Source: Euglena gracilis (Eukaryota). Taken from it: 64,000 bases of DNA. The stretch spans positions 48,463,847 through 48,527,846 of the forward strand of contig CP154954.1 in NCBI GenBank assembly GCA_039621445.1, in the 5' to 3' direction. Below are positions 17,395-57,828 of the stretch, one piece after another. The stretch's first letter is position 1. Each line of letters opens with the position of its first letter. The position numbers and the translations under genes were made by a program. The notes below the pieces were generated by a model that was not told where the DNA came from, searched no databases, and saw only the letters and a program-made list of their open reading frames with translations.

Positions 17395-17443
<49 letters not shown>

Positions 17444-18356: not shown

Positions 18357-18394
<38 letters not shown>

Positions 18395-28890: not shown

Positions 28891-29187
28891 CAGGCTGCAT
28901 TTTAGTCGGGTGCTGATCCCGGGGGGTGCCTGCCTGGGCAGGCACTCCAAGGCACTCCAAATCCGACCCCCTCCCCCCCGGGGGGGGGGGTAGGGCACAC
29001 GGCCAAAAGTGCCCTATCACAACCCCGGTGCCGAAGGCGCTGGGGAGCCAAAAATGGCCTATTTTCAAAGGAATGTGCCTGGGCACAGGCCGAAATCCGA
29101 CCCCCCGGGGGGGGGGTAGTGCCTGCCTGGGCAGGCACTCACAGGCACTCCGGACCCCCCCCCAGGGTTGGTAAAAAAAACAGCCTG
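28891..29187. mobile_element. hAT-type MITE with perfect 8-bp TSD
   Basis: ggcaggat|CAGGCTG...CAGCCTG|ggcaggat; same family as 47792-48103. Confidence 0.9.
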
Positions 29188-31440
29188 GGCAGGATCTAGG
29201 ACCCCTTGGAGGACCCACTCTTACCGTCACCAAGGAGTTCTGTAGGACCCAAAGGGTAGACAATGGAGAGGGGTGTCACGTTGCACACACACAAACACAC
29301 ACACACAGACACATATGGCAAGTTTAACTCCTGGGAAACAATGTATGTGTGCATATGTAAAAAAATTTACATGTCATACATGTGCGCGTGTGTATGCATA
29401 CATAGATATATGTGTGCTCATGCCCCCCCAAATTGCCCCCACCCCCAAAATTTTTAGCAAAAACCAGAAGATTTTTTAAATCATTTTTTTTTTAGATACC
29501 TGGCCACCAGCGCCCCAAAGGCATACCACCTTTTCAAAAAAAAAATGCCTAAACCACCCCTTGAGGTCGCCCCCCATGACATACCTCCCCCCTCAAAATG
29601 GCTCCTAAAATGAGACAGACACACACATACTCACATAAATAGATCACACATACAACACGCACCCGCATATACGTGAGAATATCTACCATACCTGCCAAGG
29701 TACCCGGCCAGCCCTGTCTGGCCGGCAACACGTGAACGACCCCATGGCTTTTTTTAAGGTCCCAGCAAATTCTTTTACATTTCCCACCGTTTTGAATATA
29801 TTTTTAAAATTTCAATTTTCTGACCATCAAAAATGGCCAAAACGGGCTGTATTTGGGGCCAGGAGGGCAACTGGCCCTGGAGGCCTGGTCACGGTAATAG
29901 AGGGCCCCTGGGGATTTTTTTTTTAGGTCCCTGCTGATTTCTTTTGATTGGTCGTCATTTTGGATATATTTTGAAATTTTTGTGTTTTTTTTTAACCCCG
30001 AAATGGCCAAAGATGGCTAAAAAAAATGTCAGAACAAGCCAAAACGCCCAATATTTGGAGCGAAGCGCCCTTAAAGTGACCCATAACTCCGGCTAGCTGT
30101 GGAGTTATAGAGAAATCAAAATACCGTTGGATGGGGCGTTCCAAGGACTTAATTTTAGGTCTGCGGACATTTCCTTTGATTTTGCTTCATTTCTGAGTTT
30201 TTTTTGGAAACATTTTTTTTGGAAACATCCCCTTTTTTCACCACGAAAACAGCCCAAGATGGTCCCAGAAATGAGCCAAAATGGCCGAAAACTGGCCGTA
30301 AGTTGGGCCACATGAAGTGGGAAAAAAGTTGTTAGGATATTCCAAGGGCTTCATTTTTGGTCTCCGGACATTTCCTTTGGTTTTGCTTCATTGTCAAGCA
30401 ATTTTTTTAAATCGATTTTTTGACCAAATCAGCCAAAAAGACACCCCAAAATGGCTGTCTTGGGCCATAAAAGCGAGCTGGAATGCTGGCAGGCGTGTCG
30501 GCAGCCAAAACGGCGTCTGGGGGATAATAGAGGGTCTCCAGGGGTGCATTTTGTCTGACAGGCCAATTTCGTCTGACAGACACTTTCGGAAGAAATGTAG
30601 ATATTTTATATATTATTTATTTATGTATTTAACACACATATTTTGCATATTATAAAATATATTATATTTTTGAATAAATCTGAAGAGATATGAGCTCAGC
30701 GGACCCCCCCCCCCCCTAGGATTTTTTTTTTGGAAGCTCAACGCACGCAGCCATTTTTCAGAGTTTTGTCTGACCACAACAGTATTTAATTCCACACAGC
30801 AAAAACACCCCAGAAGCTCCAGGCTGGAGTGGCATTCAAATATCTCTTTGATACATCAAAATCATTTTTTTTTGCCCAATTTTGCACATTTTCAATTTTG
30901 CGCCTTTCTTGCGCCTTTTTTGCCCAATTTTGCACATTTTGCCATTTTTGCACATTTTCCACCCAAATCATATGCTCACCGAATTTTGCCCACGTTCAAC
31001 TGACCCATTTCTGTAACCAACGAACCCATTTTCGCATTTTTTTTTTTTGGCCAAAATGCCTTCATTTCAGCTCTTTTTGGTGATCTTGGTTTAATTTTGG
31101 GTTTACTGTTGGAAATTTGTCTAAGTCCTTTTTCCCTTAGGAACGTCACAAACTCAGCGCATTTTTTGCGCATTTTTTTTGCGCATTTTTTGCGCATTTT
31201 TGCGCATTTTTTCTGAGGGCCGTCCAGCGCATCCCCCCCCCCCCCCTGCTGACAAGGAGGCCCAGAAAACCCTGCTTGCGGATGTCCCCCACCCCCAAAT
31301 GCTTTCAAATCCCTCAACTCCACCCGAAAGTTGTTTTTTAAATTCCACTTTTAAACCCGAAACTCACCGAAAATTTTTCAGAATAGGCCTGCAGCTGACC
31401 AACTTTTTTTGCTGTCCTAAACTCCCACCTCTCTTTCCAG

Positions 31441-31551
31441 GTGTATCTTATGATGAGCTTTTGGAAGAATTTCTGGAGTGCTCCGAGGCCAGAGATTGGC
31501 ACATTGCCTATCTTGTGCCAAACTCTGCCAACGGCCCAGTTCCCTTCTTTG
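31441..31551 (+). CDS. Exon of gene A
   Basis: ctctttccag| (G)VSYDELLEEFLECSEARDWHIAYLVPNSANGPVPFF; 3' end uncertain. Confidence 0.65.
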
Positions 31552-32314: not shown

Positions 32315-34050
32315 CAAGCACCTCTGATGATGCTGGGCGATGCTGGGCGATGCAGGGCGATGCTGGGCGATGCTGGGCGATGCTGGAATTTTGGAGACCA
32401 GAGGTGGGGTTCCGATGCTGGGCGATGCTGGGCGATGCTGGGCGATGCTGGGCGATGCTGGGCGATGCTGGCATTTTTTTTGTACATTTTGAAGAATTAA
32501 ACCCATTTCTGGGATAATTTCCCCACAATTCTCCAGTCTTACACCCATTTTGGCCATTATGGATCAATTTTTGCTAATTTGGGGGTTATTTGTCACTGAG
32601 TTGGCAAATATTAGGCTAATTTGGGTCAATACGAGCATTTTATGGCATTGTGGGCCATTTTGTGCCTTTGTGGTGATTTTGGGTCATTTTCACAATCTTT
32701 TGGCGTTTTTGGGCATTTTTTTTGGTCATTTGAAGCATTTTGGGTCATTTTGGTTGCTTTTTGGGGGCTTTTTGTGGTCAATTTTGGGTTTTTGTGGTCA
32801 TTTTTGGGCTTTTGTGGTTATTTTGGCTAGGTGGCTGGGTGCCAATGGATGAATACTGGACAGACTCTGGACAAGATGCAGATGCTGGACAAGATGCAGC
32901 CGTCGGACAAGATGTACATACCAGACAAGATGCCGATGCTGGGCAAGATGAAGTGGATGCAGATACTGGACAACATGCAGATGGTGGACAAGATGCAGAT
33001 ACTGAATAGATGCCGATGCTGGACAAGGTGCCGATGCTGTACAAGGTGCAGATGCTGGACAAGATGCAAATGCTGGACAACATGCAGATGCTGGACAAGA
33101 TGCAGATGCTGGACAAGAAGCAGATACTGGACAAGATGAAGTGGATGCAGACACCGGACAACGTTGCAGATACTGAGAAGATGCCGATGCTGGACAAGAT
33201 GCAGATGGTGGACAACATGCCGATGCTGGACAAGGTGAAGATGCTGGACAAGATGCAGATGGTGGACAAGGTGCAGATGCTGGACAACGCCCGTTGCAAT
33301 TGCAGGAGTGCCACCCTCCACCCTCCAGCACAACAACTGTTTTGGTCTCTGTTTGTCTGACCAGCAAGGGGCTTGCAACTTGCACTCGACGTTGCCATCT
33401 CATAGGCCTGCACACCACATCTTGTGCTGCCAAAAAGCAGCAAAAGTGGTCAAAAAGTGGTCAAAAAGCAGGCAAAAGTGGGGCAAAGTGGTCAGAAAGC
33501 AGCAAAAGTGGTCAAAAAGCAGGCAAAAGTGGGCAAAGGTGGTCAAATAGCAACAAAGTGGTCAAAAAGCAGCAAAAGTGATCAAAAAGCAGCAACAATG
33601 GCCAAAAGTGGGCAAAAAAGTAGCAAACGTGGGCAAAAGTGGTCAAAAAGCAGCAAAAGTTGTCAAAAGTGGTCAAAAAGCAGGCAAAAGTGGTCAAAAG
33701 TGGTCAAAAAGCAGCAAAAGTGATCAAAAAGCCGCAAAGGTGGTTGGAAATGGGCAAAAGTGGGCAAAAAGCAGTAAAAGTGGTCAAGAAGCAGTCAAAA
33801 TTGGTCAAAAGGCAGCAAATGTGGGCAAAAGTGTTCAAAAAGCAGTCACAGTGGTCAAAAATCAACCAAAGATAGCCAAAAGTAGCCAAAAGTGGGCGAG
33901 AGCGGCAAAAGCAGCAGGCATAAAAGGTACACCTTCAAGGGCTCCAAAGGCGATGCTGGGCGATGCTGGGCGATGCTGGGCGATGCTGAGCGATGCTGGG
34001 CGATGCTGGGCGATGCTGGGCCTAGGGGCATGGATGACCAGAGGTGCTTG
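32315..34050. mobile_element. Non-autonomous hAT element with (GCGATGCTGG)n subterminal arrays and internal minisatellites
   Basis: gatggggg|CAAGCACCTCTG...CAGAGGTGCTTG|gatggggg. Interior has an 18-bp gatgctggacaagatgca array (32845-33290) and an aaaagtggtc array (33430-33900). Confidence 0.9.
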
Positions 34051-37505: not shown

Positions 37506-37585
37506 GTATTTGCCCAGGAAGTGATCCTCCACATGTGCAAGGGAATTGAATGGGACGACGACACCGTGCCCGAGACCTTCATCCT
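37506..37585 (+). CDS. Exon of gene A, 5' half of an exon split by a TIR element
   Basis: ttttttgcctggcag| VFAQEVILHMCKGIEWDDDTVPETFI(L). Confidence 0.7.
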
Positions 37586-37588
37586 GTG

Positions 37589-37859
37589 CAGGGACAGGAA
37601 AGTATTCCGGTGCTAAATGAACCGGAATTAACTGGAATAAAAATTTCTGGAATATCCGGAAAACTCCGGAACATCCGGAATAAAAAGATGAAAATGATGG
37701 AGGGGTTTTGTCGTTTTTATTATGGACTTCCAAGCTTCACTTTCACTGCATGCATGGCCCTGACCTCACTGAGAAAAGAAGGCAGTGATTTTTGTGCCAC
37801 GTAAACTCAGTGCAGTGATTTTTGATGTGTGTTGTGGGTGATTTTTGTGGGTGGTTTTG

Positions 37860-37902
<43 letters not shown>

Positions 37903-40508
37903 GGTGCTTTTTTGGGGGGCTTTTGCGGTGGGGGGGGTTTTGGGGTGGGGTTCCGGCGGTTTGCTTTGTTGGTTGGTGGCAGGCTGTTTCGGGGTTTTGG
38001 TGGTTTTTTTGGGGTTTGGGTCGCCTTCATCAATGATCCAGTCAGATTTTTTTTTTCCACTCTCGCATTTTTGTGCCATTATTTCAAAGGGGTCCATTTC
38101 TCCAAAAACAAAAACTTTCCAGCAACAACCCATAAAATGGACATGAATAAGTCCCCCCTTCGGGCTTTCCAGCAATCGACCCATGAAATGGACCCGGGGT
38201 CTTATTGGGGGGGGGTAGATCAAAAATTTAGTAAGTGCTTTCGGAAATACTTGGCTGACTTTGGTCAATTTGAGCTGACAGCATTATCAGCTGTTTTATG
38301 ACATTTTGGTGGTCACAAGGTTTGAGAGCATTGTTGGCCAGAGAAATGCAGAAAATGCATCGCCCAGCATCCAAACCCCATCTGTGGTCTCCTAAAATAC
38401 AGCATCTCCCAGCATCGCCCGGCATCGCCCAGCATCACCAGAGGTGCCGGGTCCCCATTGATCACTGATGCATGATGATAAAAAGATTTTCCTTTCACCT
38501 CTTCTTTTTGTGCCTTCTTTCAGGCCTCCGGCCATTCCTTTTCCACTTTCATGGGGGGGTCCATTTCATCATCCAAAAATCCATTTCATGTATTTTTTCT
38601 CGGAAGGGCCAGGGGGGGTCTTAATCATGGGGGTCCGTTTCATGGATTTTTGCTCGGAACGTCCAGAGGGGGTCTTATTTTTTGGGGGGGGGTCCATTTT
38701 TATGTGGGGGTCTTATTTTGGGGGGTTGATTACAAAAACCAAATCAGCCAATTACCCAGAAAAATCACAAAATGGTCAAAAGTGGCAAAAATTAAGCCAA
38801 AATGGCCAAAATGGGTGAACATGGCCATTTTGTGTTATATGAGGCCATTTTTCACCTGACACCCAACTTTGTTGCACTTCACCCAGGTTCGTTTGCACTT
38901 CCCGTCAATTTGTTTGCAATTAACCAGAAAACGTTTGCACTTCACCCCATTCGTTCCCACTTTATCACAAAAATATGTGCACACTGTACCAAGATCATTT
39001 GCATTTTTTTTCAGAAAAATTTTGCACTGGATCTGGTGTTTTGCACAGTTGCCCTTTGAAACTCCAGCTGGAATGCATCTTTTTCCATAGATGCAGTGTG
39101 AGGTTTCTTTTCATTGAACAAAATTAAAATAACGGAGGGCAAATTTTCCTGAACAAGTGCAATTACTTTTGGGACGCAATGCAAAAAATTTGCCAGCCGT
39201 GGGAAAATGCATTTGAAGGCCGAGGCAAAAATTCTGACATGGTAGGGCAAATATTTTTGCCAGCCGTGGGCGAAAATTTCTGACGCTAGGTGTAGTTTTG
39301 GGTTTTTTTGTGTCATTTTGGCTAGACTTGTAGGCAATGAATGCGGACACTGGAGTGGATGCCGTAAATGGATGCAGATATTGGAGTGGATGCAGATGCT
39401 GGAGTGGATGGATGCTGGAGTGGATGGAGCAGATGCAGATACTGGACTGGATTGGATGTACTGGAAGCACTGGAGCATGCACGAGTTGGTACAGATAATG
39501 GAATGGGATATACACCGGAGTTGATGCAGTGGATGCAAGTATTTGAATGGATGGAGTGGATGAGAAGATCCTGGAGTTGATAGAAGTACTGGAGTGGATG
39601 CGATGCAAATATTGGAGTGTATGGTGTGGATGTAAATACGGGAGTGGTTGCAGATGATGGATTGTACGGAGGTCATGGAGTGGATGGAGGTATTGAAGTG
39701 GATGGAGGTACAGGAGTTAATGCCCTGGATGCAGGTATTGGAGTTGTCGAAAGTACCAGAGTGGATGAAAACCACTATGAAAGTTTGTGTATTTCGGAGG
39801 AATCCCCAGACAGATGGAAACGTGATCCACTTTGTTTAATGGGATCCCTGCATCCAAAACTGCAGCAGTGTTCACCATTAGTGCCATCTTTGTTCAAATC
39901 CCATTGGAACTGAACTCCCGTTCACATATTCACTGAAAGAGCTGCCAATTGATGAATTATGATCAACGACAAACCCACATTTCAGCTTGTTCAAACTTCC
40001 CTTGGAAGATCTAAACCCGAAATAATTTTCCTGTGTCCTAATTCTTTGCGTACCGAAATTGTTTTGCAGGGGGGAAGGCCAAAAAAGATCGGTCCAAGTT
40101 GTTTTGCCCTCAACAAGGAAAAAAGGGGGGGAATCGATGCATCTTTACACATGTGTGTCTGAGGCACACACACACATTTTTTTTGGATTGGCCAGTGCTC
40201 CTAAATTGACAAATATTACCAATTTGACAAGTTGTTGAACGACCGTGTCAGTGCCACAAAGCAAGCTCTTAACAAAGAAACAGCCGGTTGTTCATTGAAC
40301 GTGATGTTTCATAGTTAAGCTGGGCAACCAAGGAATTAAGTTAAAGTTAAGGAATGGATTCCCGAAACCCGAGAGAAGCTTTCCAAGTCTTTTCTCAGCA
40401 CAAAGTGGCCGGAAATTATTCTGGAACATCTGGAATAAATTCCGGAATATTCCGGATTAACACCCCGAAATAAAAATTTGGACCAACTGGAATATTTTCC
40501 TGTCCCTG
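37589..40508. mobile_element. 2.9-kb TIR element in coding sequence; candidate non-conventional intron
   Basis: tcctgtg|CAGGGACAGGAAAGTATTCC...GGAATATTTTCCTGTCCCTG|tcctgtg (19/20 TIR, 7-bp TSD); clusters of ccggaa motifs at both ends. Confidence 0.88.
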
Positions 40509-40512
40509 TCCT

Positions 40513-40535
40513 GTGGCAGGAGATCCTCATCTCTG
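40513..40535 (+). CDS. Exon of gene A, 3' half of the split exon
   Basis: Continues (L)WQEILIS then |gtcacg in phase 1, matching the acceptor at 42040. Confidence 0.55.
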
Positions 40536-41561
40536 GTCACGACATAATGAACATCAAATTCCAGCAGTGGTTGTTTCACAGCATTTGGGGGCTCAACTTT
40601 TAAGGCAACAGCAAGACAAATTGATATCCGAAAATGATATCCTGGTCCGATGGGGATAGAGGATCAAATACCAGCATTTTTTTTGTCACAAAACCTTATT
40701 GCAGACTGTTGCATTTTCGCATTGTTTCCGTTGCTTTTCTTCCGTTGCTTTTTGTATTTTATGTGTGCCAAGTTGCAGTGGCCAGTACTTTTTTAAAGCA
40801 AAAGGAACAAGCATGGATGTCTATTTCGACAATTAAGCACGACATGCATTTCGACAACCACGATGTCCTGTCATTGTCATATTTGTACCCAGAAGTTTCA
40901 GCCTTTGTAGGGGGGATATTCAGGCCCTGATAAACTGAACCGGAGATTCCCGAAACTCGAATATCCTGAATAACCGTTCTGGACCAATGAAATTTTTGTG
41001 GACACGTAGCAGAAGGAAGGCTGTTGGAAGGGGGGTACGGGAAAATGCAGGCACTTTTTATTGAATTTTGTCTTTTTTTTATGGCAAAGTCTTTTTTCGT
41101 TGTTTTTTTCCGAGTCTTCCAGAAGGAAAAAATGACTAGGAAGCATTTGGCATTTCGCGCCAGACTTGCTCCGTGGCAACATTTTATTTTTTATGTCATT
41201 TTTGAAACCAAAGTGGGAATTTTTGGAATCAAGGATTCCTCAAAATTTTTACAATCAGGCTATTGCTTAAGGGTTCGAAGCACCCCAGGGAGGGGGGAAG
41301 CTGGAATGCAGCTAGTCTAAATTTGGCTGGTGGAAATTCTAGTGAACCCCCCCGGGGGGGGTCCACTACCAGGGCCAGCCAGTGGAATTTTTTTCCAGTG
41401 ACCAGCACAAAGTGCTGAATTTTTTTGGACTCTCAAAACTTGCCACATAATTCCCATTTCTGGCCAACTTTGTTGTTTTTTTTGGATAAAATCAGTCTCA
41501 TTTCCACCTCGGCAAGCAGCGTCGGATGATTTTTTTTTCCAGTCTGGGGGGGACTCCGGAC

Positions 41562-41845: not shown

Positions 41846-42039
41846 CTCCGGACCCCCCGGGGGGGAGGGGTCTAGCTGGTGGCTTTTGTGTCTAGCAAAA
41901 TGGCTATCCAGTGGAACCCCAGGGTTCCCAAGGAATAGTCTGGTTACAATCATTTTTTTTGAATTCCTGGTGCAACCCCAAAGTGGTTGTTTTGTTTTGT
42001 TGAGAAGCCAAAGAATCTGCTGTCCCAGTTCCCCTTCAG

Positions 42040-44280: not shown

Positions 44281-45671
44281 GTGGGGAGGACGACACAGTC
44301 CCCACGCACCAGCTCGATGTGGACTAGCGTGGCCCCCCGCAACTCCCTCCAAACCACCCACCACCCACCCGCCATTCGTGATGCCCTCGCCAAGCGATGC
44401 ACTGGACTGTGCATGCGTGACCAGCTTCGAGTCGAGGGTTGTGTTCCTGGTGCATGTGGTGAGACAATGGCAGTGTTCTTCAAGGCCTTCGAGCTTTTGA
44501 CAAGTCGATTGGATTTATTTTTCTTTCTAATCTGAGAATGGTATTTTGACAAGACCACAAAAGCACAAATTGGACCTTTTGAGTCGAACATGAGATTTCG
44601 GTCAGTGTTTGATCCCTCTTGGTGGGTTCTCTTCAGATTTTGGGCTCCAGAATCCCAAGCAGCAGTTAAAGATGAATTTTCGAAGACATCTTCAAAATCA
44701 GCTTCAGCATCAGCTTAGGCATTTGGGTTAGGATTTGTTTGTTTGGTTTTTTTGAAAGTGAAAACAATATCAACAAATTTTTCCTTCAGGCTGTCAGAGA
44801 TGTGACAAGCTTTTTTTGCTGAACCACAGAAGTTCTGAAATCCACAAAGGAATAAACCCCCTCCCAAATTATAACCCCCCTGGGTTATTATTTTTCGCCC
44901 AAAATCCTGGCCCAAGGGGGTATTATTTAGGGGGGGGGTAATAGCACCCCAAATTTTTCGAGATTTTTTGAAGTCCCATAGGATCCAAAATAGCACCCAA
45001 AACCCCCTTTGGTGTCATTTTTTTTGTGCTTTCTCATGAAATTTAGCATTTTAGCAGGCGAGATGATCCAGAAAAATTGATTTGTATTTTATTTGCAATT
45101 TTTTTATTTGTAATTTATCGTCAGCAATTATTATTTTTACCCAAATTCTCAGGGCAAAACCTGGGCCGTCGACCGGAAAATTAGGGGGTATTGCTCGGTC
45201 GGCGAAGTCTGACTCCGACGGGGGGGGGTATTACTTGGGGGGAGGGTTTTCCGAAGTTAGTGGAGACGAAAAAAAATACGTTTACATAACCCAAAGCAAA
45301 TTCGCAAAACGGAAAATGCTGAAAATGCGGATTCTTTTTTTTCTTTGCTCCATGAACACACACACACACACACACACACCCACCCACACACCCACATACA
45401 CACACAAGCACACACGCACACACACAACACACACAAAAGAAAAGCCATTTGGGAGCAATGAAAGAAAATGGCGAATGGTTAACCTCAAGTGTGTAGATTC
45501 TCTGCCCCTGCGCCGGTCAAGGACGTCTCAAAGCGCAGCCCCCCCCCCCCCCCTGGAGGCCGTGGGAACAAGAAAGCAATTTTTTTTGGCTCATTCCAAC
45601 TTGTTTTTTCTGGCGGGGGGCAGTTGGTGCTCCGAGGGACGGGCTGCGGATGCTCTGCGCCTCGTCCCCAG

Positions 45672-45760
45672 CCCGCCTCGACCCCATGCTCTGGCCGCTC
45701 CTCTGCCTCCTCTGCCACCTCCCCGGGCTGTGGGCGGACGGCCAAACCGCCTGCGTCAAG
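45672..45760 (+). CDS. Exon of gene A
   Basis: tccccag| RLDPMLWPLLCLLCHLPGLWADGQTACVK |gtgggg; may extend further. Confidence 0.65.
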
Positions 45761-46795
45761 GTGGGGTACCTGGAGTACGGGTACCCCCACCGGCCGCGCC
45801 TCACGCTGCTTTGGGGACCTCGACTGACGACTCATCAAGCCCCGCTCCCCTCCCCCCACCACCTGCCGCGATTCAGAGCTGATTGATTGGCCGAACCCGA
45901 TGGGCAAACCCCAACCAGGCTGAAGCAAACCTGCGGCTTTACTTGGGGGTTCTGTCAAAGCACACACAGTAGTTGTTCGGTGGGTTCACTGGGCCTGCCC
46001 ACGAGTTGCTTCGATCTGGCCCACAGAATCGATAAGGGCTCATTCTATTGGGTCCAGCCCAGGGAAGGTGAGGCGCAGGCGCAGACAGAGAATGGACGCC
46101 ACAGCGCAACAGTGCCCCCCCCCAAAAGGACTGTTCTGGGGGCTCACCGATGCTTGCTCCAGCGGATCCTCCTGCATTCCCCGGACAGTTTGTGGGTTGT
46201 TTCCATGCGGGAGGGCGTCTTGTCCCCTCCCTTGGTCGTGGCTGAGCGCTGCACAGAATTTCCGCCTGAAAGCCGCTTGGAGCAGTTGTGTTCAGCATCA
46301 GGGATTTTTTTTTTGCAGGTTGCACCCCCGGCTAGGAGGAAGGGGGAATGGGGTGGGTGGTGGCAGATATTGATTTAGTGTGTTGGGGTGGCGACCCTCC
46401 TCCAACCACAGCGCTGGGGTGTGATTCCCTGCCACGCTTTACAGGGCCCAGGCCCACTATGTAGCTGAGGTGTCTAAAGATCTATCCGCTCAGTTGGAAA
46501 TCGCTCAGTTGTAAGATGTCTTACTTATCATATATGTCTGTGAATCGAGTTTTGTGGCCATCAACATTCTTTGTGGACACCAATTTTTTCCCCCTTGTGA
46601 ACCACACTACATGAATGTCTGGTGGGGTGTCCGCCTGACCCTCTACCCCCCACGGGTGGGGTACCCCCAAGAGCTTTGTGGGTGTAAGGAATCCCCCTCG
46701 AACCTTTCTGGACCTTGTCTCAGAAACTGCTCCGCTTCAGAGGTTTAAGGCTGTGTGTTTCTTCCGACGCCCCCCCTCCCCTCGTGGGCGGCCAG

Positions 46796-46933
46796 CGTGG
46801 GATGCGAGCCCAGCAGCTGCTGGAGGAGTACTGCTTCGTCTACATCTGCCTCGGCGGCCAGGACCCGATGCTCAACATGGACTGGTACCCGGACGCCTGC
46901 TGCTACGTCGACACCGCGGCGGCCAACCTGAGC
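46796..46933 (+). CDS. Exon of gene A
   Basis: ggccag| RGMRAQQLLEEYCFVYICLGGQDPMLNMDWYPDACCYVDTAAANLS |gtgtgc; strong GC3 bias. Confidence 0.8.
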
Positions 46934-47095
46934 GTGTGCTGCGCCGAGCGCAAGGCGCACCCGCTCGTTCAGCATGCCGACGCGTTTCGCCTTCCCCGGG
47001 TTGTTGTAACACCTTTCTGTTTCGCAATCTGTGGATGGGACGTTTTTTTTTTCGGGGTACTCTCTCTTCTGAATCGGTGTTGCTGTGGTTTCCAG

Positions 47096-47233
47096 GTGGT
47101 TGCTACCTGGAACCTTTGCTGCCCCCCCTCCCCAATCTCGCCTTGCGTTCGCAAGGGCCCCCCATTGCCTGGCTACTGGAAGGACGTGAACGAGCCACTG
47201 TATTGCAAAAGTGTGCCCCTCATTGGCTGTTGA
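47096..47233 (+). CDS. Possible downstream exon of gene A
   Basis: tttccag| in the same phase; ...GPPLPGYWKDVNEPLYCK; boundaries uncertain. Confidence 0.4.
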   Translation: MVATWNLCCPPSPISPCVRKGPPLPGYWKDVNEPLYCKSVPLIGC

Positions 47234-47791
47234 TGGGGGTCGGGGGCTTTTGCGGCAGTCTCAGGCCCCGCGAAACCACCTAAGGCCAGGTTGGTGAGTA
47301 TGGCTGCCTGAGGCCAAATGCTTGGGCTTTTCTTATGGATATGAAGCCGAGTGCCAAAGCATGTGCCAGTGGTGCATTTTAGCTGGAAACCCTCTTGGTG
47401 TTGTACCTTGGATATCCCCTCGGAGTGGACATCTGCACTTTATTTTAAAAACAGTTGCGCGGATTTCCAGTTTCACCCATAGCCGCCAATAAACATTTGC
47501 GGCAATTTCCATTGCTATTGTTGAGTTATATTCACGCCCCCACCAAGAAGTTGGTCTCCGGTCCCACCCTTGCAAACTTATGCCTCATTGGATTTGGCCT
47601 CGCATTATGGGTGGCCAGATATCATCATGCCACATGTCAATTTCTTCCCCCGGAGTGCACCTATTTTTGGCCAGATATTGCAAGTCCCCCCCCCATTTTT
47701 GACCGATTTTGCTGGACAGCTACAGAAAGGGGATCTGCTATTTAGATTCTTGGCGGGAAACCGAGGGGGGTTCTAGGAGGGGGGTTGTTAT

Positions 47792-48103
47792 CAGGCTGTT
47801 TTTAAGGTGGTGCCGACCCCACTCCGGGGGGGGGGATGCCTGCCTGGGCAGGCACTCCAAGGCACTCCCGATCCGACCCCCCCACCAGGGGGGGAGGTGG
47901 TTAGGGCACACGGCCAAAAGTGCCCTAGAACAGACCCCGGCGCCGAAGGCGCCGGGGAGCCAAAAATGGCCTATCTTCAAAGGAATGTGCCTGGGCGCAG
48001 GCCAAAATCCACCCCCTCCCCCCAGGGGGGGTAGTGCCTGCCTGGGCAGGCACCCCAAGGCACTCCGGACTCCCCCCCCCCGGGATTGGTAAAAAACAGC
48101 CTG
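47792..48103. mobile_element. hAT-type MITE with perfect 8-bp TSD
   Basis: gttgttat|CAGGCTG...CAGCCTG|gttgttat. Confidence 0.9.
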
Positions 48104-48963
48104 GTTGTTATTTGGTCTAAATTTGTTATTTGGTCAGAGGTCTGATTGGTGAGGTTGCTTTTTTGGTGGGGAGGACTTGTGTCGCGCATGGGCTCCTCCC
48201 CAAACCTCCCCACCTGAATAGTTGCACGGCCAAATGACTAATCTTTGGTCCCAAAAATTCCCCAGGATTGGGCGAAAATGCTAATTTGAAGGCATGGCTG
48301 CAGCAAGAGGTCTTATGCTGTTGCGTTGCTCTTTCCCTTCACTCTGTTCTGATGCATTCCCAGTGGAACACCCACTGAGAAAGTTTGATATTCTTTTCCA
48401 TGTGGGAAATTCTAGACCCCATTTGGCCCAAGCCCCCTGAGCTTTCGGCAAACTTTGTGTAGAAAACGCTTAATTTTTCGGTGTGCCAAGTTCCACAAAC
48501 CTTTGACTAATGAGGGGTCCCTGGGTACTCCAGGGACGGTCCAAGCCCTATCCCCCCCTGTGGTACACCCCCCCCCCAAACCCAGACACGGGAGAGACAC
48601 GGGAGAGGTTAGGCACCCTCACAGTTGCGGTTCAGCTTCTGCCGCAGAAGTTCTCTCAAGAAGCACATCTTTGTTGGGAAAACAGGATTGGGGGGTCCCT
48701 CGCCGTTCGGTGCTTCGGCCCCTGCCTCTCCATTGCACTCCAATGTCACTCCCTGCCCTCACAGCCCACACCCCGACCCTCACCCCCACCCCCACCCCCA
48801 CCACCAGCTTGACCCCAACGGCCTCCCTCAGCCCCACAGTCACCAACACCCGCACCGCCTCTTCGGCTGGGGCTCCTCAGGATGTTTGAGGGGGGAATGC
48901 GATACGGCCCGTAAGGCAGGGTTTGCGTTTAGTTTAGTGCCGGTTTGGGACCATTTGGTTGAC

Positions 48964-49355
48964 CAGGGGGTCTCTTAAGCCTGGGGGGGGTAGAGCCAGC
49001 CTTTTTCTTACCAGCAACTCACAGTCGGGCTGCGAACCCCCCCATGGTTCGCTGAAATGAAGTTCAGGCCAGCCCAGCAAAGCCAGGCTGGACCGAAGAA
49101 ATGTCCGGCGCAAAACACCAAAAACTTTGGGGAAAAGGGGGTCAAATGTGGCCCAAAATGGCCCTTTTTGGATTTTGCCTCTAAATTTTGGCCGAAAAAT
49201 GCCAACCCCGCTGGATTTGAGCTTTTGGGGGCATTGTTTTTTGGGCACTCGCCTGGTCCAGCTACCAGACCGGCCGGACCCCCCCCCCCCATCCTGCCAG
49301 CACCTTTTTCCAGCTGGCCTGCAGGACCACCCCCGGGTCCTTAAGAAAACCACTG
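48964..49355. mobile_element. hAT-type MITE
   Basis: tggttgac|CAGGGGG...ggtccttaagaaaacCACTG|ttgttgac (7/8 TSD). Confidence 0.7.
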
Positions 49356-50145
49356 TTGTTGACGTTTTTGGGGGGGGGAAGTCAGCAAACAATGCACCAC
49401 CCGAGCTGGTGTGGTACTTCTTATCGCACACAACAATTGATGAAACGGGGAATGCCAACAGAAATCGTGGTGACAGCGTCCTAGCTTGAGGCTGAGAGTG
49501 AAGGGAGGGGTAGTTCCGCACCTGTACTTGAACTGCTGCGACCTCCCCCTCCTTTATCAATTTAATACATTTCAAGCCACCTTTTGATTAAGAGAATTTG
49601 TCACCCAGTTTTCCGTTTTATTGACATTTTTTTTGCCTATTTCCCCCATAAAAAAAAACGAAACAAATCCTTTTTTTTACCGTTTAGCGTTCCCCCCAAA
49701 AAACAGCCGTATACCCCTGTATCCCTCAACTACAACTGCATCCCCTGGGCGGGGGTTGCGGGTCAGGAAGTCCCCCCCCCCGGTCGGGGGTTGCAGGTGA
49801 CCCCAAATATAATTAAGTCTCCATCAAGAGCTTTGGCACCTGGTTGTGCGACCACACCGTGGTCAGGGATTGGGAGTTGTGCATAGGGGTGCCCCTTTGG
49901 TTGGGGGTTGGGGGAACCCGGTCGTTGCACAAGGGTTACCAAGAGACTCCGTTTCCATTCCCACCTTCCTCTCTGAAACCAGTTCCTGAACAGAAGCCTG
50001 TGCCGGAGGGCCTCCACCGGGGTCACGCACCGAGTCGACAAGCAGGACCCTGACCCAGATCAGGCTTTTGCCAAATTCCGCTGGGGGGGAGGCTGAAATG
50101 CCTTGCCCCTCCTCCCTGGGCCAGTGGAAACCCTCCTCGTCCAAC

Positions 50146-50418
50146 CAGGGGTTTTTTTTAGACCCCCGGGGGGAGGGTGGGATAGGGTGGGTGGGTCCGA
50201 CCAAGCCCCCCTTTGGGGGGGGTTCCCCAGATGGGGGGTTGGGTTACTTTTTGGCGCCAAAGGTGCCGAAATTTTTTGAAAAGGTGCTATTTTTAGCATT
50301 TTCGCGATTTTTGGCCATTTTCGGGGGAAATCGGTTGGTCCCCCGGATCCCCCCCCCCCCGGAGGTGGGTGGGTGGGGGACCCCCCCCTCCCCCCCCGGT
50401 CTTTAAAAAAAGCCCCTG
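50146..50418. mobile_element. hAT-type MITE
   Basis: cgtccaac|CAGGGG...CCCCTG|cgtccgac (7/8 TSD). Confidence 0.85.
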
Positions 50419-51647
50419 CGTCCGACCCCCTCACCCCGCCCAGGTGTGTCAGCAAGCGCCTGACCCCAACGGGCTCCAGAACCAGAACCGAGACCGGAAG
50501 CCAAACCTACACTGCCAGCCGCACCAGGGAGGTCATCACTGCATTTCCGCTGGCAGCGGCTCGTGTCATGAACCCCCCCTTCTGGTTTACCACCACAGCT
50601 TGGTTGCACAGTTGGACAGCTGGGCACGTCCTTGCCAGGGTTGTGCGGGAATCCCCACAACCCTATGGGTGATGACCCACTCCCATCCTGGTGGCAGGCA
50701 ACCCCCCCACCAGGCTTTCCCATATTTTTGGGGGCACTGCTTTTCAGGTCTTTTTCCTTTCTTTAAGAAATACATTTCCTTTGGTGCCTTCAACGCCGAC
50801 GGAGTTTTCTTTTCAGTGATACCATGTTGGGTGGGGGGGTCGACCTACCCCTCACCTCCTGGATGGGGGGGGGTCCGAGCACCCCACGAGGCCTTTTCGT
50901 GCAGCCCTGGTTCTTCTGGCTGCCCTGGCTACAACATCTCGCCTTAAACCAAAGGAAAGGTGAGAACGACGCTTGCAACAGTTTGGCGTTGGGATATTCC
51001 AAGTGTGGAAGTTGTAATGGAGGTTTGCTTTGTGCATTTAACGAATACTCAAAATTTGAAAACAGTCTATGGCTTTTGTTTTTCCTCATCAAGGAAACAA
51101 AAGCAAGGTTTAATGAAGATAAAAGAACTGTCCATGTGTTGCTACAGTCAAATATTTCTTTTTTGATCTGAGAGAGGGACCTCGCATCAGCACACTAACG
51201 CCAACTGTGACACACAGTACAACCTCGTCCTTCACTCGCACCTGTACAGAGTCAGGTTCACGAACCTCAGCTGCGTTCCCATTATGACCCCCCCCGAAAC
51301 CATTGAATAAGATAGCACGCTCTCCATCGGGTTTGGCATGCATCCTTCTGTTACATCCGGCTGGCGAAGCAACGTCTTCCAGTTCCCAAAATTGTGGAAC
51401 CCCCCAATATGATGACGGCGTTATTGGACTTTTAATTTGGTAGTCATCTGGAGGGGGGTCGTTATAAATGGGGTTATACTATCAGAGAGGTCATTCATTC
51501 AGACAACAATCACCAAAAACCTCCCGGGTCTGCCCCAGGGGTTGGTTTGAGGAGGGTGCCACGGCTTTAGGTGGTGGTGGTTTCCCAGCGAAGAGGTTTG
51601 GACCCTCCGCCTGCCAAGGGGGGGTCCGGACCTGGGGGACCCACAAC

Positions 51648-52005
51648 CAAGTACCTATGAAATGACTGGGCATGGCTGGGCGTCCAAAAGTCTAGCAAGG
51701 CCAGTGGAAGTCCAATGGTGGCCAAATGTGGCCGGGTTTTCCAGTCACACCCAGTCATATGCCCAGTCACACCCAGTCACACTTTTTGACCACGTTCGAC
51801 CTTTTTTGGTTTTTTTTTGTCTGCTTCTGGCCCATTCGGATATTATTGGCCGCCAATGTATATTATTGAGTGTTTTTGGCCACTTCAAAAATTGCCAGAA
51901 ATTTTTTTGATATTGGGGGTTCTATGCGATAACTGGTTGTGAGTGAGCGTGACTGGGTGACTGAGGGTGACTGAGTCTGGGATTCTGGATGAACATAGGT
52001 GCTTG
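51648..52005. mobile_element. Short hAT derivative with GACTGGG-type subterminal repeats
   Basis: CAAGTACCTATG...CATAGGTGCTTG; flanks cccacaac/cccatgac (6/8). Confidence 0.7.
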
Positions 52006-53424
52006 CCCATGACCCCAAAAGTCATTTTTCCTCCATGTGGAATTTATTTGGCGATTTAACTTTTTTTTTTACCACAAAACAGTGTCCAAATAACATCTTG
52101 GGTCGATTTTGGCAATAATATTTTTCGTCCTGGTGCGAAGCTCCGGGCCGCACCACTGTTTTACCTCCTGCTGTCCCAGTTTTTTTTTTGCGATCATTCT
52201 TGGTCTTTATTCTTGTTGTTGTTGTTGCTGTTGTTGTTTTTGTTGTTGTTGTTGTTGTTCTTTTTGTTTGTTCCGGCGGCGTTTTTGTGCTTTCTTGTGT
52301 GCCACCTCATTTCTGACTCTTTGGCCCAGTGCTCCTCTCCGGGTCATTTCGTTTGGATTCCCCAATTTTCAGCCCGAAGAAGTTCAACACTCTTTCCACC
52401 AATTTCACAAGACACGCTGCCTCCGTGTGGTTCCAAAAGGAATTCAGATGGAACTTGCATATTGTTTGTGTGCATTTTTACACCTTTTTTTGTGTGCATT
52501 TTGCACATTTTTAAGAGGCGTGTCGCATTCCCCCCATCCCCCTGCTTCAGTTCCACAGGTCCCTTCCATTTCCCCCTGGGGCAAAGATTTTGAGGCTGAT
52601 ATATTAATTTTGTGCCGTCGGTTCTGCTTGCAAAGGAAAACTTGTATGTGGGTTGGAGGTCCCTCTGGGGGTGTCCATTCCCTCCCCCTACTGCACCCTG
52701 TATTGCCTTCCGGGGGCCTGGGCTTGGCCAGGGGTCCATCTTCAACGCACCCATCGGTGGTGCCGTGTGGTGTGGAACAAATGCTGATTTTGGGGACGTA
52801 TGGCGGACCACCACCCGCAGCACCAGTAGCACACCAACCCGCAGCGCCACCACCGAATCCGCCTCTCCTTCCAGAATCCTTCTAAGGTTTTTGCTAATTG
52901 CCGTACAAGCATTTGACGCTTCTGGTTTTATGCATGAGCGGGGTGTTTATGATTGTGGGGGTTATGTTTGTGCTGGATTGAATACACCTTTTTCCCAAAC
53001 AGCAGTGTATGAGTGCCCCTGCTTCGCAATAGGAGGGGTGCATCTCCTGTTGACATGCATGTCCGGTGTCAATGATTCGGTTGCTCGATGCTGGCACAAC
53101 CCTGACACACGTAGAAAGAAATGCAAACTTTTCTGGCCACCCTCTGGAACCGCCTGGAAAGCTTTTCATTGACCTTTTTTTTGACAGCACCTTGCCTCTG
53201 ACACTCTCTAATTCTGGAAAGAGCACCAAAAAAGCCGTTGCGCAGCTCTGTGTCGATTCTTCTGGTTTGTGTCCCAAAGCTGCAAATCCACATCTGACCA
53301 AAGTATTGTGTGGAATCGTTATGCGACAGTGCAAACGTCTCCGGAAGCCATTTCGTGTAGCGCATTTTATGCCCCAAACAAATAGTTTTCCTGTTTCGAA
53401 CAAACACTGTGCGAAGGAGAAGAG

Positions 53425-54325
53425 GAACGACAGCGTCACGAGCAGCGCGACTCCCACCAGAACCCCCACCCGCAGCAACACCGAGAGCCGCACCCGCACT
53501 GCAGCCCGGCCTCCGCTGCCCGTTGTGGGGATACCCGCCAACGTGCTAGGAAGCCTTCCCCCAGAGGAAAAAGATGAATGCAAAGAATCGTCACAGGACA
53601 GGTCATTGGGTTGGAGACAGTTTTCCAGAGGACCGGCTAGCGAATGCAAAATGGACAGTTTCCTGTTGAACGACTTGCGTTTTCCCAACCATGGCCAAGT
53701 TTTCCTGGCTTGTGGCCAGAAATTGGTGAAGAAGGTGCTTTTTCACATTTCTGTGTTGGTCCAGACTGTTTGATTGCCCTCATCTGATCCCACCCCCAGG
53801 AAAACTGGTTTTTGGCCCTTTGCTCGTTAAATTGCATTAGCTGGTCTGGAAATCATTTCTTGGGGGGTTGGCACCCCCGCTGGGAATCGCTGAGATGTGT
53901 GGAGGTGGCGTGCAGGTGACAAAGCTGCTTGCGCCTGTTTAGCTGCGGGGCCTGCGGACGCCGGGGCCCGACACACACCAGGTCGTCGTCGCCCACCACG
54001 AGCGCCACGGGGACGGGCAGCCAGACGGAGAGTGGCAGCGAGAGCGGCACGAGCTCCGCCACCCGCAGCGTGTCCCTCACCTCGACCAGGCTGAATTTTA
54101 TGGCGTGGTCGACCCCACCCAGAGGATAGCAAACAATACCCCCGACTTGCTGTATGGGGGGAAGGGCAGGGAGGCTAAGAATTGCCCCTTTTTTTGGTCT
54201 TCTGGTGCCTTCAGCTGGGGCACCCTCCTCCCACGAATTCAGCCTCATGTCGACCAGCAGCAGGACACAGTCAGTGACGGGCAGTGCCACAGTCTCTCCA
54301 AGTCGCAGCGCTACGGAGACCGCAC
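53425..54325 (+). CDS. Ser/Thr-rich coding-like modules (53425-53500, 53960-54090, 54250-54325); exon boundaries unresolved
   Basis: SVTSSATPTRTPTRSNTESRTRT; GPTHTRSSSPTTSATGTGSQTESGSESGTSSATRSVSLTST; TSSRTQSVTGSATVSPSRSATET. Homologous to modules at 60-64 kb. Confidence 0.5.
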
Positions 54326-54361
54326 CTCCTGCTGGGCGGTGTGGGTGGAGGTGGTGGTGCT

Positions 54362-57014
54362 CAGGCACCTATGGCCGACCAGGGCCGACCAGGGCCGACC
54401 AGGGCCGACCAGGGCCGACTATGATTTTCAGGACCCCCGTAGGTGGGGGTTCCGACCAGGGCCGACCAGGGCCGACCAGGGCCGACCAGGGCCGACCAGG
54501 GCCGACAGGGCCGACCGAAGGGGAATGGATGAAGGAATTCGGCAGCTTTCCCTCTGAACCACCCAAGCTTTGCAAGACACTTGATCACTTTTGTTTGTCT
54601 TTGTCCTCCAGCTTTTCCAATGGCGAAGAATCATGCCTGCACGCGGACTGTGGCCCAATGGGTCGCTTGGGCGGAGGCAGATGGGATGGTCGGCATTGCA
54701 GCGGACAGCAATGATCCAGGTGCGCCAAAGGTAATGCTCTTGTTTCTTGTCTGCTTCTCTGTGTAGGGAAAGTTTATTGCACCGTTTGCGCAAGGTCGTA
54801 TGTACCCACAGCAAGCGCTTTGAAGCAGCATTGCTATGGATATTTCAAAGGAAGTGGGCCAGACAGGCAATTTGTAGAGAGTGAACACTCCAAGAAGGTA
54901 AAAAAACGGAAGGATCGTGAAGAAGCAATGCCTGCTCCGGTTTCTCAAGTCGCTGTGAATTCGGTTCCACAAAACATCATCATCCAGGTGCTATTTTGTG
55001 CAAAAAATAGAAATTGGATATTTTTCCCTCAAGGTTCAAAGTGCTTTGGAAGCAAAACCGCTCACAGATGCTATCGAGACCCCCAAGAAAAAGGCCAAAG
55101 GGACTCTGGACCATTTTGTTTCTAAAGGAAACAAGGAGGATCAATTCAAGAAAGATTTGGTTGCTGCCGCAAATATTCCTCTTGAAAAAGTAAAAACAAA
55201 AGACAACGGTGAAAAAACCTTACTGAGAAAGTTCTTTGAGAAATATGTTCGACTGGATGGCGAAGAAGTTCACCTTCCTGATCCTATCAACCTGCGAGGG
55301 AACCACGTACCCCATGTAATGGCCGATGGTATAACGTTCATTCTTGTGTGATGTCCTTGTTTGTATGTATCCACAGGCGTGCATAAGCTCAGGGACATTA
55401 TCATGAAAGGGTCCTGGTTTGTGGTGATTGAAGCCGACGAAACAGATGATCCACGACCAGATAACCACTATGTTGTTTCTGTCGCCATGACTTTGCTGTC
55501 AAAAGGCGGTGAAGCAGTTGCACCCAAAAAGTTTCATATCAAGTTATTCTACCCAACGAGCGTGGACCAGAAAACTTTGAGCTCCATCATTGACCAGGTG
55601 TTAAGACTCCTTGATTTTCTCCTAATTTACTTTTGTAGGCACTTCGTGAGCTTCACGCGAGAGCATTGCCGGGCTTTATGACCTCATGAAGTCGTCCGCC
55701 AAGACCATCCAAATTCAGTTATGTTTTGTTGTTCAAGCTTTGAAGCCTTTGTACACAGCCATCAAAACATTGCAAAAAGACAGTGGCGGAATTCATGACA
55801 TCTTGGGAGAATTTGCAAGGTTCATCACAATATTTGCCTTGCGGATTCTCTTGTATCGTGCTTTGTACAGGCTAAAGGCAAATTTCCAGGAAATGCAAGA
55901 ACGAGGACAGTGGCCGCCAGAGGTCGAACAACTTCTGGAAAGGCACAGTTCGGATTACATCAACACAATGCAAAAACTGATGAAGGCTTGTTGCAAGGTA
56001 TCTGATTTGTCTAATTTGTGATGCTGTGCTGCATTTTGGGGCGCTTTGGCCCAATCCAAGCCAAAGCCGTTTCCCCCTCGCTCATTATGTTTGCATTGCA
56101 GGCGATCGTTGACAAGATGGACAACATCTTGGTGAAAACCGTGAACGCATTTGCAGACAAGCAAGATGTCGCCCACGAAGGTGATGTGTGAGCGCGTTCC
56201 GCTGGTTAATGCCACAGAGTGGGAACGTTATATCACTCTGCCTTCCCAACAACCTCCACCATCTTCCACAGCTGGTCGCATCAACTGGTGGATGTCACAA
56301 ATTTACCATTCCTTCGTTGGTTTGGAATGAAATGTGGGGTGGTTGTGCATCTCTTGCCAAAGCGGGGTCAGCCATTTTTTTTTGGAATGTGTGGCAAAAT
56401 CACCGCTGGTGATTTAGGGGGCCATTGCGGTTTCAACATTTGGGTTGTGAGCAATGGTTTGGTTCCGCATCGCTGATTTTCCCTCGCTTGCACCCGTTGC
56501 CATGGCCTATCTGCAGGCTCCACGTTCATCTGCTCAAATAGAGCGATATTTCTCACTGCTCGGTCACACAAAAGGCTGGTATGAATGAGGATGCAAATGA
56601 TTGAAATTTTCGATTACGTCAAGAATTGTTTTTCCATTCCAGCTTTTTTTCCATTCAAACATCGGATCGCTTGAATATGTCTGATACGACGCTCACCTCC
56701 TTAGCCTTCATTTATATGAACAAGAGCTTGTTTGACATCTCTGCGTGAAGAGCCGCACTTTCACCTTTGCATTTTTGTTTTGTGCTCTGATGGCTCAGCT
56801 TATGGGGCATTTCCTTTTGATCTTGGCGAGACAAGTCAGAAAATCATTGCATCTCTTCACATTTTTTCTGTGACGGATACCCCCACCTATGGCCGACTAT
56901 TGGCCGACCAGGGCCGACCAGGGCCGACCAGGGCCGACCAGGGCCGACCAGGGCCGACCAGGGCCGACCAGGGCCGACCAGAGCGCCAAAATGGGAAGTG
57001 ACCATAGGTGCCTG
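54362..57014 (+). mobile_element. hAT DNA transposon with (CCGACCAGGG)n subterminal arrays
   Basis: gtggtgct|CAGGCACCTATGG...CCATAGGTGCCTG|gtggtgct: perfect 13-bp TIR and 8-bp TSD; encodes a transposase. Confidence 0.95.
54620..56748 (+). pseudogene. Intron-containing CGGBP-like hAT transposase, probably internally deleted
   Basis: Exons 54620-54719, 54767-54987, 55034-55328 and 55377-55597 splice in phase via GT-AG. Motifs: KVYCTVC...ALKQHC (Zn finger), ANIPLEK (CGGBP-like), ADETDD (first catalytic D), APRSSAQIERYFS (56517-) and RLNMSDTTLTSLAFIYMN (hAT C-terminal dimerisation region). Frame breaks near 55655. Confidence 0.88.
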
Positions 57015-57616
57015 GTGGTGCTGGTGTTGTGGGGGGGGGTGAAAATTGGGGTTTTGGTTGGGTGATGCCGGGCCTCCAAGGGCGGCGGCTGCAGAGGCAG
57101 GGGTTTTTTTTAGTCGTGGATCCCCGGGGGGAGGGGGGGGTTGGGTTGGTGGGTCCGGCCGAGCCCCCCTCCCCCCCCCCAGGGGGGAGGGTCCCCCCGG
57201 AGGGGGGTGGGATATACTTTTCGGCGCCGAAGGCGCCGAAAATTTTTGAAAAAGTGCTATTTTTAGCAATTTTCGTGATTTTTTCGGCCATTTTTTGTGG
57301 GTCCCCTGGGAACCCCCCCCCCGGGGGGGGTGGGTGGGCGGCAGAGGGTGGTGGTGGCGGCGGCGGCGGCGGTGGCGGTGCTTCCCGGGTGTAAGGGACA
57401 AGGGGTCAGGGACCTGGACGATTGGTGAGGTGGGGCACTTTCCGTCCCCTCTCCCCTAATGCGCACCCCTGTCCCCCTCAGCCCCTTGCCAGCTTGCCCC
57501 CTCACCTTTTGCCCCGGCGGCGAACCATCATCCGGGCTTTCCTCCGTGTGTGGGGGATGTCCAGGGTTCTTGGGTCAAGAAGCTTTCCCTTGGGTGCTCC
57601 CATCACCTGTTGAGGT

Positions 57617-57828
57617 CAGGGCGCTGTTAAACAAATTTTGACCCCCCACTTTTGGGGGCTTTTCTGATCTTTGATTTTTTTGCCACCTGGTTCGACCCAG
57701 GTTGGCTTTAGTTCCAGCCCTGGGAAGGGGGGGGGTGTCAGCCAGCAGCCTTTTTCCAGCCACCCCAAGTTTTCCAGCCTCTGAGCTGGACCCCCTGCCC
57801 CCCGGGGGGGTCCTTAAGCAACGCCCTG
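57617..57828. mobile_element. hAT-type MITE related to the 78-nt candidate intron
   Basis: gttgaggt|CAGGGCGCTG...ggtccttaagCAACGCCCTG|gtcgaggt. Confidence 0.85.

Follow-up and report, generated by a model that had tools for sequence, protein, structure and literature searches.

An exonic inverted-end element is lost from Euglena gracilis RNA together with one 8-bp flanking repeat: a candidate hAT origin for nonconventional introns

Many euglenid introns obey a splicing code of their own, and the locus described here raises the question of where these nonconventional (NC) introns come from and why their code counts three nucleotides (nt) at one end and about five at the other. NC introns make up 71.8% of the introns of E. 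agilis (PMC12501133, 2025). Knock-in experiments in the same paper showed that CAG and CTG are each needed, that the spacer before CAG is strictly 3 nt and that 5-6 nt after CTG are preferred, and that the acceptor exon begins with a purine; 69.1% of the E. agilis NC introns are slidable, being flanked by direct repeats. Their origin was nevertheless termed unclear in 2025, with elements resembling MITEs (transposable elements of the miniature inverted-repeat type) as a suggestion. Insertion of a MITE-like element had been proposed in 2014, when no transposable element had been identified in euglenids (PMC3935182). A 2024 review names CAG/CTG a 'TIR' (terminal inverted repeat) and the repeats 'TSD-like' (from target-site duplication), and states that NC introns leave as circular RNA, after the conventional introns (PMC11282704). 

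In this study, we analyzed a stretch of 64,000 nt of Euglena gracilis DNA (assembly GCA_039621445.1, contig CP154954.1, positions 48,463,847 to 48,527,846), referred to as the window. We consider it likely, at a probability of roughly 80%, that the window is nuclear DNA of a host with euglenid-type NC splicing, that it is peppered with hAT-type transposons, and that exonic copies of these are spliced out together with one copy of their target duplication. The observation that carries this reading concerns a MITE of 70 base pairs (bp) at 44171-44240, which lies in a coding exon and is missing from RNA together with 8 further nucleotides.

For this analysis, positions 39000-58999 were compared with four sequence sets, namely X17 (contigs, guessed to be RNA), X21 and X24 (raw RNA-seq reads, about 5-6% of each run's reads being used, with the runs attributed by species label), and X15 (DNA, contigs). 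Four introns were defined by the reads in one plus-strand gene with exons of 26-93 nt, and the reading frame is unbroken over all four joints. The gene thus holds an inverted-end element as an intron, intronic MITEs, one ordinary intron and an exon-splitting MITE:

37582-40508, plus strand: non-GT/AG intron (a), 2927 nt, made up of the element 37589-40508 with ends CAGGGACAGGAAA plus the 7-nt repeat TCCTGTG
40535-42056, plus strand: non-GT/AG intron (b), 1522 nt; CAC stands at +4 to +6, and 6 nt follow CTG; holds the elements 41256-41942 and 41562-41845
42150-44087, plus strand: ordinary GT-AG intron (c), the internal comparison
44168-44245, plus strand: non-GT/AG intron (d), 78 nt, borders placed by the published rule
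44246-44327, plus strand: last coding exon of the host gene, with the stop codon TAG at 44325-44327

Intron (a) appears as a loose end before 40509 in X17 and in 16 X21 and 5 X24 reads. Because the 30-mer with which these continue sits at 37552-37581, the intron extends from 37582 to 40508, and the 13-bp perfect inverted ends of its element fall exactly at or inside the RNA-defined borders. The joint of intron (b), from 40534 to 42057 with ends GG..CC, is contained in an X17 contig and in 23 reads of X21 and 5 of X24; no X15 DNA contig has it. That of intron (c), from 42149 to 44088, is supported by an X17 contig and 19 X21 reads.

The joint of intron (d) leads from 44162 to 44241, skipping 78 nt with 7 letters shared between the two sides. 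It was found in an X17 contig at a depth of 104.5 and in 18 X21 reads from 16 different starts, and in no X24 read and no X15 DNA contig. The 78 nt that are missing from the RNA equal the 70-bp element plus one 8-bp copy of its flank. Eight cuts are equivalent here, each giving the same messenger RNA, and none of the eight has GT-AG borders; if the left flank copy were left intact by the cut, the RNA would show a letter other than the one it has. Among the cuts within the range of the joint is 44168/44245, which reads GCG-CAG...CTG-ACCGT and leaves a next exon starting with G, and by the published 3-nt/5-nt rule the intron is 44168-44245. The cutting rule itself is taken from print. As judged from the 18 joint reads at the 70-bp element against 19 at the adjacent GT-AG intron in X21, the element is removed about as completely as intron (c). 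The original prediction for this DNA, made from the letters alone, had proposed that such insertions are removed without a scar, and it had named retention in mRNA or removal at GT-AG sites as the outcomes that would count against this; for the one element on which RNA could speak, neither outcome was observed.

The borders of 44168-44245 agree with those of known euglenid NC introns (Milanowski 2014, 2016; the PNAS 2025 code, for E. agilis and E. gracilis) in several respects. They are non-GT/AG, CAG at +4 to +6 is paired with CTG at -8 to -6, the spacers have the published lengths of 3 and 5-6 nt, the acceptor exon begins with a purine, and the direct repeats make the intron slidable. In the centroid fold of 44168-44245 alone, CAGGG pairs with CCCUG and leaves 3 and 5 nt free; an earlier fold that included the flanks paired exon with exon and was uninformative. 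All three NC introns of the gene are followed by a purine (G44246, G42057 and G40513, the last of these under a 3+4 cut).

Several observations at this site weigh against the proposed account. The clean removal of an element plus 8 nt is a single case (n = 1), and the RNA runs and the DNA run come from different studies. RNA depth is about 0 at the elements starting at 47792, 48964, 50146 and 51648, and those at 28891 and 32315 lie outside the read-covered 39000-58999. The hairpin energy of the 78-nt intron is not better than that of shuffled sequences (z -0.33 and -0.90). As the 78 nt keep the frame and contain no stop, the frame alone cannot show their removal and the reads alone do; continuity of open reading frames (ORFs) across excised elements was dropped as a test, as G+C-rich DNA opens long frames everywhere. 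Moreover, two variants located 54 nt downstream, 44295 A>G and 44297 A>C, occur in about 12 of 28 X21 reads as well as in the X17 contig, but not in the X15 DNA. They point to expression of a further allele, or of a paralogue, of the host gene, whose DNA at the element site was not seen.

The existence of this variant form gives substance to another explanation of the 78-nt gap, namely that it stems from transcripts of an allele, paralogue or strain that was never hit by the 70-bp element and carries a single ACCGTGCT. An empty and a filled site would differ by exactly the element plus 8 nt, strains are documented to vary in whether they have such introns (PMC4770533), and the absence of the joint from the DNA contigs is only weakly informative, as rare variants can drop out of contigs. 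We nevertheless regard this explanation as distinctly improbable. If the element-free DNA were that of the variant copy only, the joint would have well under half the reads of the GT-AG joint, whereas the two counts are nearly the same with only 12 of 28 reads carrying the variant letters; the counts suggest that transcripts with the letters of the window also lack the element. The X15 DNA contig over 43880-44879 contains the element, and no joined form is listed among the DNA contigs. Furthermore, the 78-nt segment conforms to every item of the published splicing code, and the same transcripts lose two more non-GT/AG introns.

The spliced element is one of many in the window that share its architecture. 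The original prediction listed about ten elements beginning with CAG, CAA or TAG, ending with CTG or TTG and carrying 8-bp TSDs, and all ten starts proved correct. They are given here with two further units, without strand unless marked:

2169-2343: inverted-end element, 175 bp; flank repeat CATAGCTG, 8/8
28891-29187: MITE, 297 bp; ends CAGGCTG...CAGCCTG; repeat GGCAGGAT, 8/8; of the same family as 47792-48103
32315-34050: non-coding element, 1736 bp; 12-bp perfect ends CAAGCACCTCTG; 10-nt arrays near both ends; repeat GATGGGGG, 8/8
41256-41942: element, 687 bp; repeat TTTACAAT/GTTACAAT, 7/8; intronic
41562-41845: MITE, 284 bp; ends TAGGGG.../CAGGGT...; repeat CTCCGGAC, 8/8; nested in 41256-41942
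44171-44240: MITE, 70 bp, in a coding exon; repeat ACCGTGCG/ACCGTGCT, 7/8
47792-48103: MITE, 312 bp; repeat GTTGTTAT, 8/8
48964-49355: MITE, 392 bp; repeat TGGTTGAC/TTGTTGAC, 7/8
50146-50418: MITE, 273 bp; repeat CGTCCAAC/CGTCCGAC, 7/8
51648-52005: element, 358 bp; ends CAAGTACCTATG/CAAGCACCTATG, resembling those of the elements at 32315 and 54362; repeat 6/8
54362-57014, plus strand: element with a hAT remnant, 2653 bp; 13-bp ends CAGGCACCTATGG; 11-nt arrays near both ends; repeat GTGGTGCT, 8/8
57617-57828: MITE, 212 bp; repeat GTTGAGGT/GTCGAGGT, 7/8

Among the ten elements listed originally, the flanking repeat is perfect in five (28891-29187, 32315-34050, 41562-41845, 47792-48103 and 54362-57014), 7/8 in four (44171-44240, 48964-49355, 50146-50418 and 57617-57828) and 6/8 in one (51648-52005). 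Three more units came to light, namely 2169-2343, 41256-41942 (which encloses 41562-41845), and the element 37589-40508 of intron (a), whose inverted ends are perfect over 13 bp and whose repeat is 7 nt long. The 26 ends of these 13 units begin with CAG (21), CAA (4) or TAG (1), and hence with YAR in every case. The hAT end consensus is YARNG; the G at the fifth position is present in part of the ends only. GT...AC is the target preference of hobo and Hermes, and seven of 12 flank repeats start with GT or end with AC, against a chance of 0.10-0.17 per site, in a small sample and by a test that was picked post hoc.

A control for chance that preserves the repeats of the sequence used every YAR...YTR pair of 12-nt inverted ends with no more than 2 mismatches and a separation of 50-4000 bp (561 pairs), comparing the 8 nt outside each pair in register and in eight shifted registers. 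Identity of at least 7/8 was found in register at 9 of the 561 pairs and in each of the eight shifted registers at 1-2; for at least 6/8 the counts were 16 in register and 3-7 in the shifted registers. Given this in-register excess, the 8-bp flank repeat of the elements is genuine.

The elements fall into two groups. The first consists of those at 32315, 51648 and 54362, which share the end form CARGYACCTMTG and have 10-11-nt arrays close to either end. The second comprises the short elements of 70-690 bp, whose ends share CAGGGnnTTTTTTAAGGACCCC and have the longer consensus CAGGGnnTTTTTTAAGGACCCCGGGGGG, in which A2 and G3 are invariant in an alignment of 20 ends. Within this group, the elements at 28891 and 47792 are 86.5% alike over 275 nt and have different flanks, and over 180 nt those at 41562 and 50146 are 82% alike. 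In the DNA run, the summed depth of contigs, which is not a copy number and was used only as a sign of many copies, lies thousands-fold above that of neighbouring bins over 47671-48337 and over both ends of 54362-57014, and only a few-fold above it in the interior of the latter. The similarity of RNA and DNA reads stops exactly at the element end 57014. At 54556, 8 X21 reads, 4 X24 reads and 4 DNA contigs leave the window and continue as the 32315 family from its 5' end; a nested insertion is therefore present after this position in other copies of the 54362 family. The read ends at 57014 and the switch after 54556 fit mobile units with nested insertions, and the copies presumably arose by transposition. 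A scan of metagenomes with a 32-nt stretch common to the elements at 28891 and 47792 gave no match, and Rfam had no match in the window.

What kind of transposon these elements represent is suggested by the only unit with a transposase-like frame, 54362-57014, in which we recognized the following feature:

55650-56576, plus strand: decayed frame of a hAT transposase, covering its central and C-terminal portions; 9 stops in frame within 55650-56699

The read-through frame 55650-56699 contains these nine stops in 350 codons, with upstream parts in other frames. A phmmer search of 1.84 billion representatives with this frame returned 66 relatives at E up to 0.001, 22 of them at 1e-10 or below and the best at 1.2e-30. 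PF05699 (Dimer_Tnp_hAT, the C-terminal dimerisation domain) is present in 31 of the 66, six of the first ten being above its curated cut-off, and no other Pfam family occurs among them. A profile built from the 66 relatives matches the C-terminus of the Hermes transposase (residues 541-603, E 2.3e-9). It is thus through its relatives that the coding remnant is assigned to hAT. In tblastn, the relatives match the window inside 54362-57014 only, and the window frame retains the ...SSAQIERYFSLLGH stretch. In the atlas, clusters with the hAT domain neighbour the best relative, and hAT-like RNase-H and ZBED1 clusters, with scores of 0.83-0.90, are among the neighbours of the relative P0001; these are leads only. 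In comparison with relatives such as P0002, the frame has 162 extra nt at 56304-56465, in frame and containing stops, which may be an intron or an insertion within the transposase gene.

Direct searches yielded less. Pfam gave no hAT match for eight ORFs of the window and six read-through frames of 54362-57014, the frame 54959-55681 had no match in PDB (phmmer) or Pfam, with neither a BED zinc finger nor an RNase-H-like DDE core recognized, and a phmmer search of PDB with P0001 gave nothing useful. The claim in the original prediction that one element encodes a hAT transposase therefore survives as a remnant identified via relatives and not as an intact gene. The state of this remnant is unfavourable to our account in three ways. 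This transposase copy is dead; all relatives of the frame are fragments of at most 327 amino acids, and besides P0001 itself no full-length or similar-length relative of P0001 was found, which is weak evidence; and the transposase-bearing element has the ends CARGYACCTMTG, which share only CAGG with the CAGGGnnTTTTTTAAGGACCCC of the small elements, so that the hAT copy is at best a candidate mobiliser of these. The proposed coexistence of a mobiliser with intronic and exon-splitting MITEs was borne out as to the intronic elements (41256-41942 and 41562-41845) and the exon-splitting copy, whereas the candidate mobiliser is dead and has different ends.

These differences leave room for the view that the spliced MITE and the other small ones come from another superfamily duplicating 8 bp, such as Merlin or P, and that the hAT remnant is an unrelated neighbour. 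Merlin families with 8-bp target duplications are known from E. gracilis (PMC8101967), and no intact transposase is linked to the small MITEs. However, all the reported Merlin ends begin with GG and the Merlin transposase carries DDE_Tnp_IS1595 (PMC8101967), whereas not one of the 26 ends in the window starts with GG. The sole transposase-like frame found within an 8-bp-flanked CAG...CTG unit is of the hAT type, and the GT/AC bias of the flank repeats, with its limits given above, points in the same direction. We therefore consider a non-hAT source improbable, and regard the small MITEs as probably mobilised by hAT transposase.

The elements of the window resemble hAT transposons (hobo, Ac, Tam3 and the structurally characterized Hermes) and their MITEs in the 8-bp duplications and the short inverted ends with CAG or TAG, as well as in the short arrays near the ends and, as the relatives of the remnant suggest, possibly in the C-terminal dimerisation domain. 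They differ from them in that the coding copy is decayed, and no N-terminal BED finger or catalytic core was recognized in it with Pfam and PDB. In maize, the ordinary spliceosome takes Ds out at cryptic GT-AG sites, and usually does so imprecisely. Ds/Ac insertions spliced from exons, reportedly described by Giroux (1994), are a precedent for the loss of hAT elements from transcripts. In both cases an exonic element of the hAT family, probably so in the present one, leaves the transcript; here, however, the borders are non-GT/AG and the target is restored exactly.

Under the proposed mechanism, the transposons would belong to two groups, a family with CARGYACCTMTG ends, whose 2.65-kb copy has a dead hAT transposase, and MITE families of 70-690 bp sharing CAGGGnnTTTTTTAAGGACCCC. 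Each insertion would have duplicated 8 bp of its target, and an exonic insertion would thus appear in the pre-mRNA as flank copy, CAG...CTG, flank copy, with the inverted ends paired. The NC splicing machinery would then cut so as to leave a spacer of 3 nt ahead of CAG and one of about 5 nt behind CTG. As the segment removed would be the element plus 8 nt, that is, one duplication copy, the mRNA would return to the sequence it had before the insertion, whichever way the element was oriented. The 3+5 rule may exist because the duplication is 8 bp long. The original prediction had extended this arithmetic to any such insertion; it describes the 70-bp element, which loses 8 extra nucleotides, and is too wide as a general statement, since the CAA...TTG elements lie outside the published CDG-CHG code. 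The interpretation is accordingly supported by one test, with limited generality.

How far the mechanism reaches beyond this element is the point at which the other two NC introns of the gene become important. Their spacer sums are 7 nt in intron (a) (3+4 or 2+5) and 9 nt in intron (b) (3+6), which also speaks against a strict rule: 8 is not universal, and in intron (b) a flank repeat is no longer present. One could therefore argue that the match is a coincidence or the effect of a filter, with NC introns arising mainly by other routes, for instance the repair of double-strand breaks, and CAG...CTG MITEs being merely tolerated. Published data lend this some weight, as the eight-nucleotide direct repeats of an intron newly gained in one E. 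agilis strain were taken in 2016 as a repair scar (PMC4770533) and synthetic introns without any repeat are spliced (PMC12501133). On the other hand, two of the three RNA-defined NC introns of this gene have their borders exactly at elements with inverted ends and 7-8-nt repeats, the ends of the spliced 70-bp unit are shared with multi-copy MITEs elsewhere in the window, and families with shared ends are not expected from repair scars. The high share of slidable NC introns in E. agilis quoted at the outset (PMC12501133) also counts against this alternative. We hold it to be unlikely. The broader proposition, that most euglenid NC introns are fossil insertions of hAT MITEs and that the NC code is a precise excision at the RNA level tuned to hAT ends and the 8-bp duplication, is put forward tentatively, with the odds slightly against it.

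The idea that NC introns come from MITEs has been published before, as have the spacers of 3 nt and 5 nt. However, published work on NC introns leaves the source merely 'MITE-like', whereas the intron described here is a member of multi-copy families with 8-bp duplications beside a hAT remnant, and the sum of its spacers is interpreted as one duplication copy. In a literature search that most subscription journals lay beyond, no publication was found that names hAT for NC introns or ties 3+5 to an 8-bp duplication; nor did we find in print real families with a coding remnant or an RNA-verified member.

Introners and MITE-derived introns (Micromonas, Aureococcus, dinoflagellates, Fritillaria; PMC11282704) offer a parallel, for in these, too, DNA transposons with inverted ends make introns on a genome scale and the duplication contributes part of the splice geometry. 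Those introners are excised by the spliceosome in its canonical or a relaxed form, whereas here the paired transposon ends are the cue; the euglenid NC system, unlike introners, also releases circles according to print (PMC11282704). A spliceosomal introner, which together with its duplication supplies GT/GC-AG excision sites, was considered for the spliced element and rejected, as the 78-nt intron has no GT-AG option.

The two questions addressed here, the origin of NC introns and the logic of the 3-nt/5-nt rule, are those that the papers of 2024-2025 leave at 'MITE-like' and unclear. To these the window contributes concrete families that are assigned to a superfamily, together with one case verified in RNA. 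It also permits a one-line account of the measured code, in which 3 + 5 would be one 8-bp hAT duplication, and this makes the question of origin countable genome-wide. If the account is true, a host RNA-processing pathway neutralises one transposon superfamily, exonic insertions of which would be phenotypically silent in either orientation, hence the flooding of genes, and a genome with more non-canonical than canonical introns would be explained.

Other parts of the window contain features of different kinds. Two inverted-repeat arms of 329 nt, 15125-15453 and 21806-22134, are 99% complementary and lie 6.35 kb apart with (AT)n-rich DNA between them. The ORF 21384-22106 on the minus strand matches Pfam HTH_Tnp_Tc5 (E 1.2e-9) and is a pogo/Tc5-like transposase remnant, partly repeated at 15153-15494. 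At 60000-64000 the G+C content is about 63% and open frames come back in the same sets with a period of roughly 1.25 kb, which looks like a long-period tandem repeat; Tandem Repeats Finder (TRF), with a period limit of 500, reported no array at 58-64 kb, and Pfam had no match for 60035-61003 on the minus strand. Long (CA)n/(TG)n-like and (AT)n-rich tracts at 5760-6850 and 16070-19200 swamped naive repeat scans, which without a complexity filter were dominated by (AT)n. Finally, within the GT-AG intron of the host gene, 43680-43880 is occupied by an array whose unit is palindromic and of the GCCTCCGCGGAGGC type, and over which the summed DNA depth is high.

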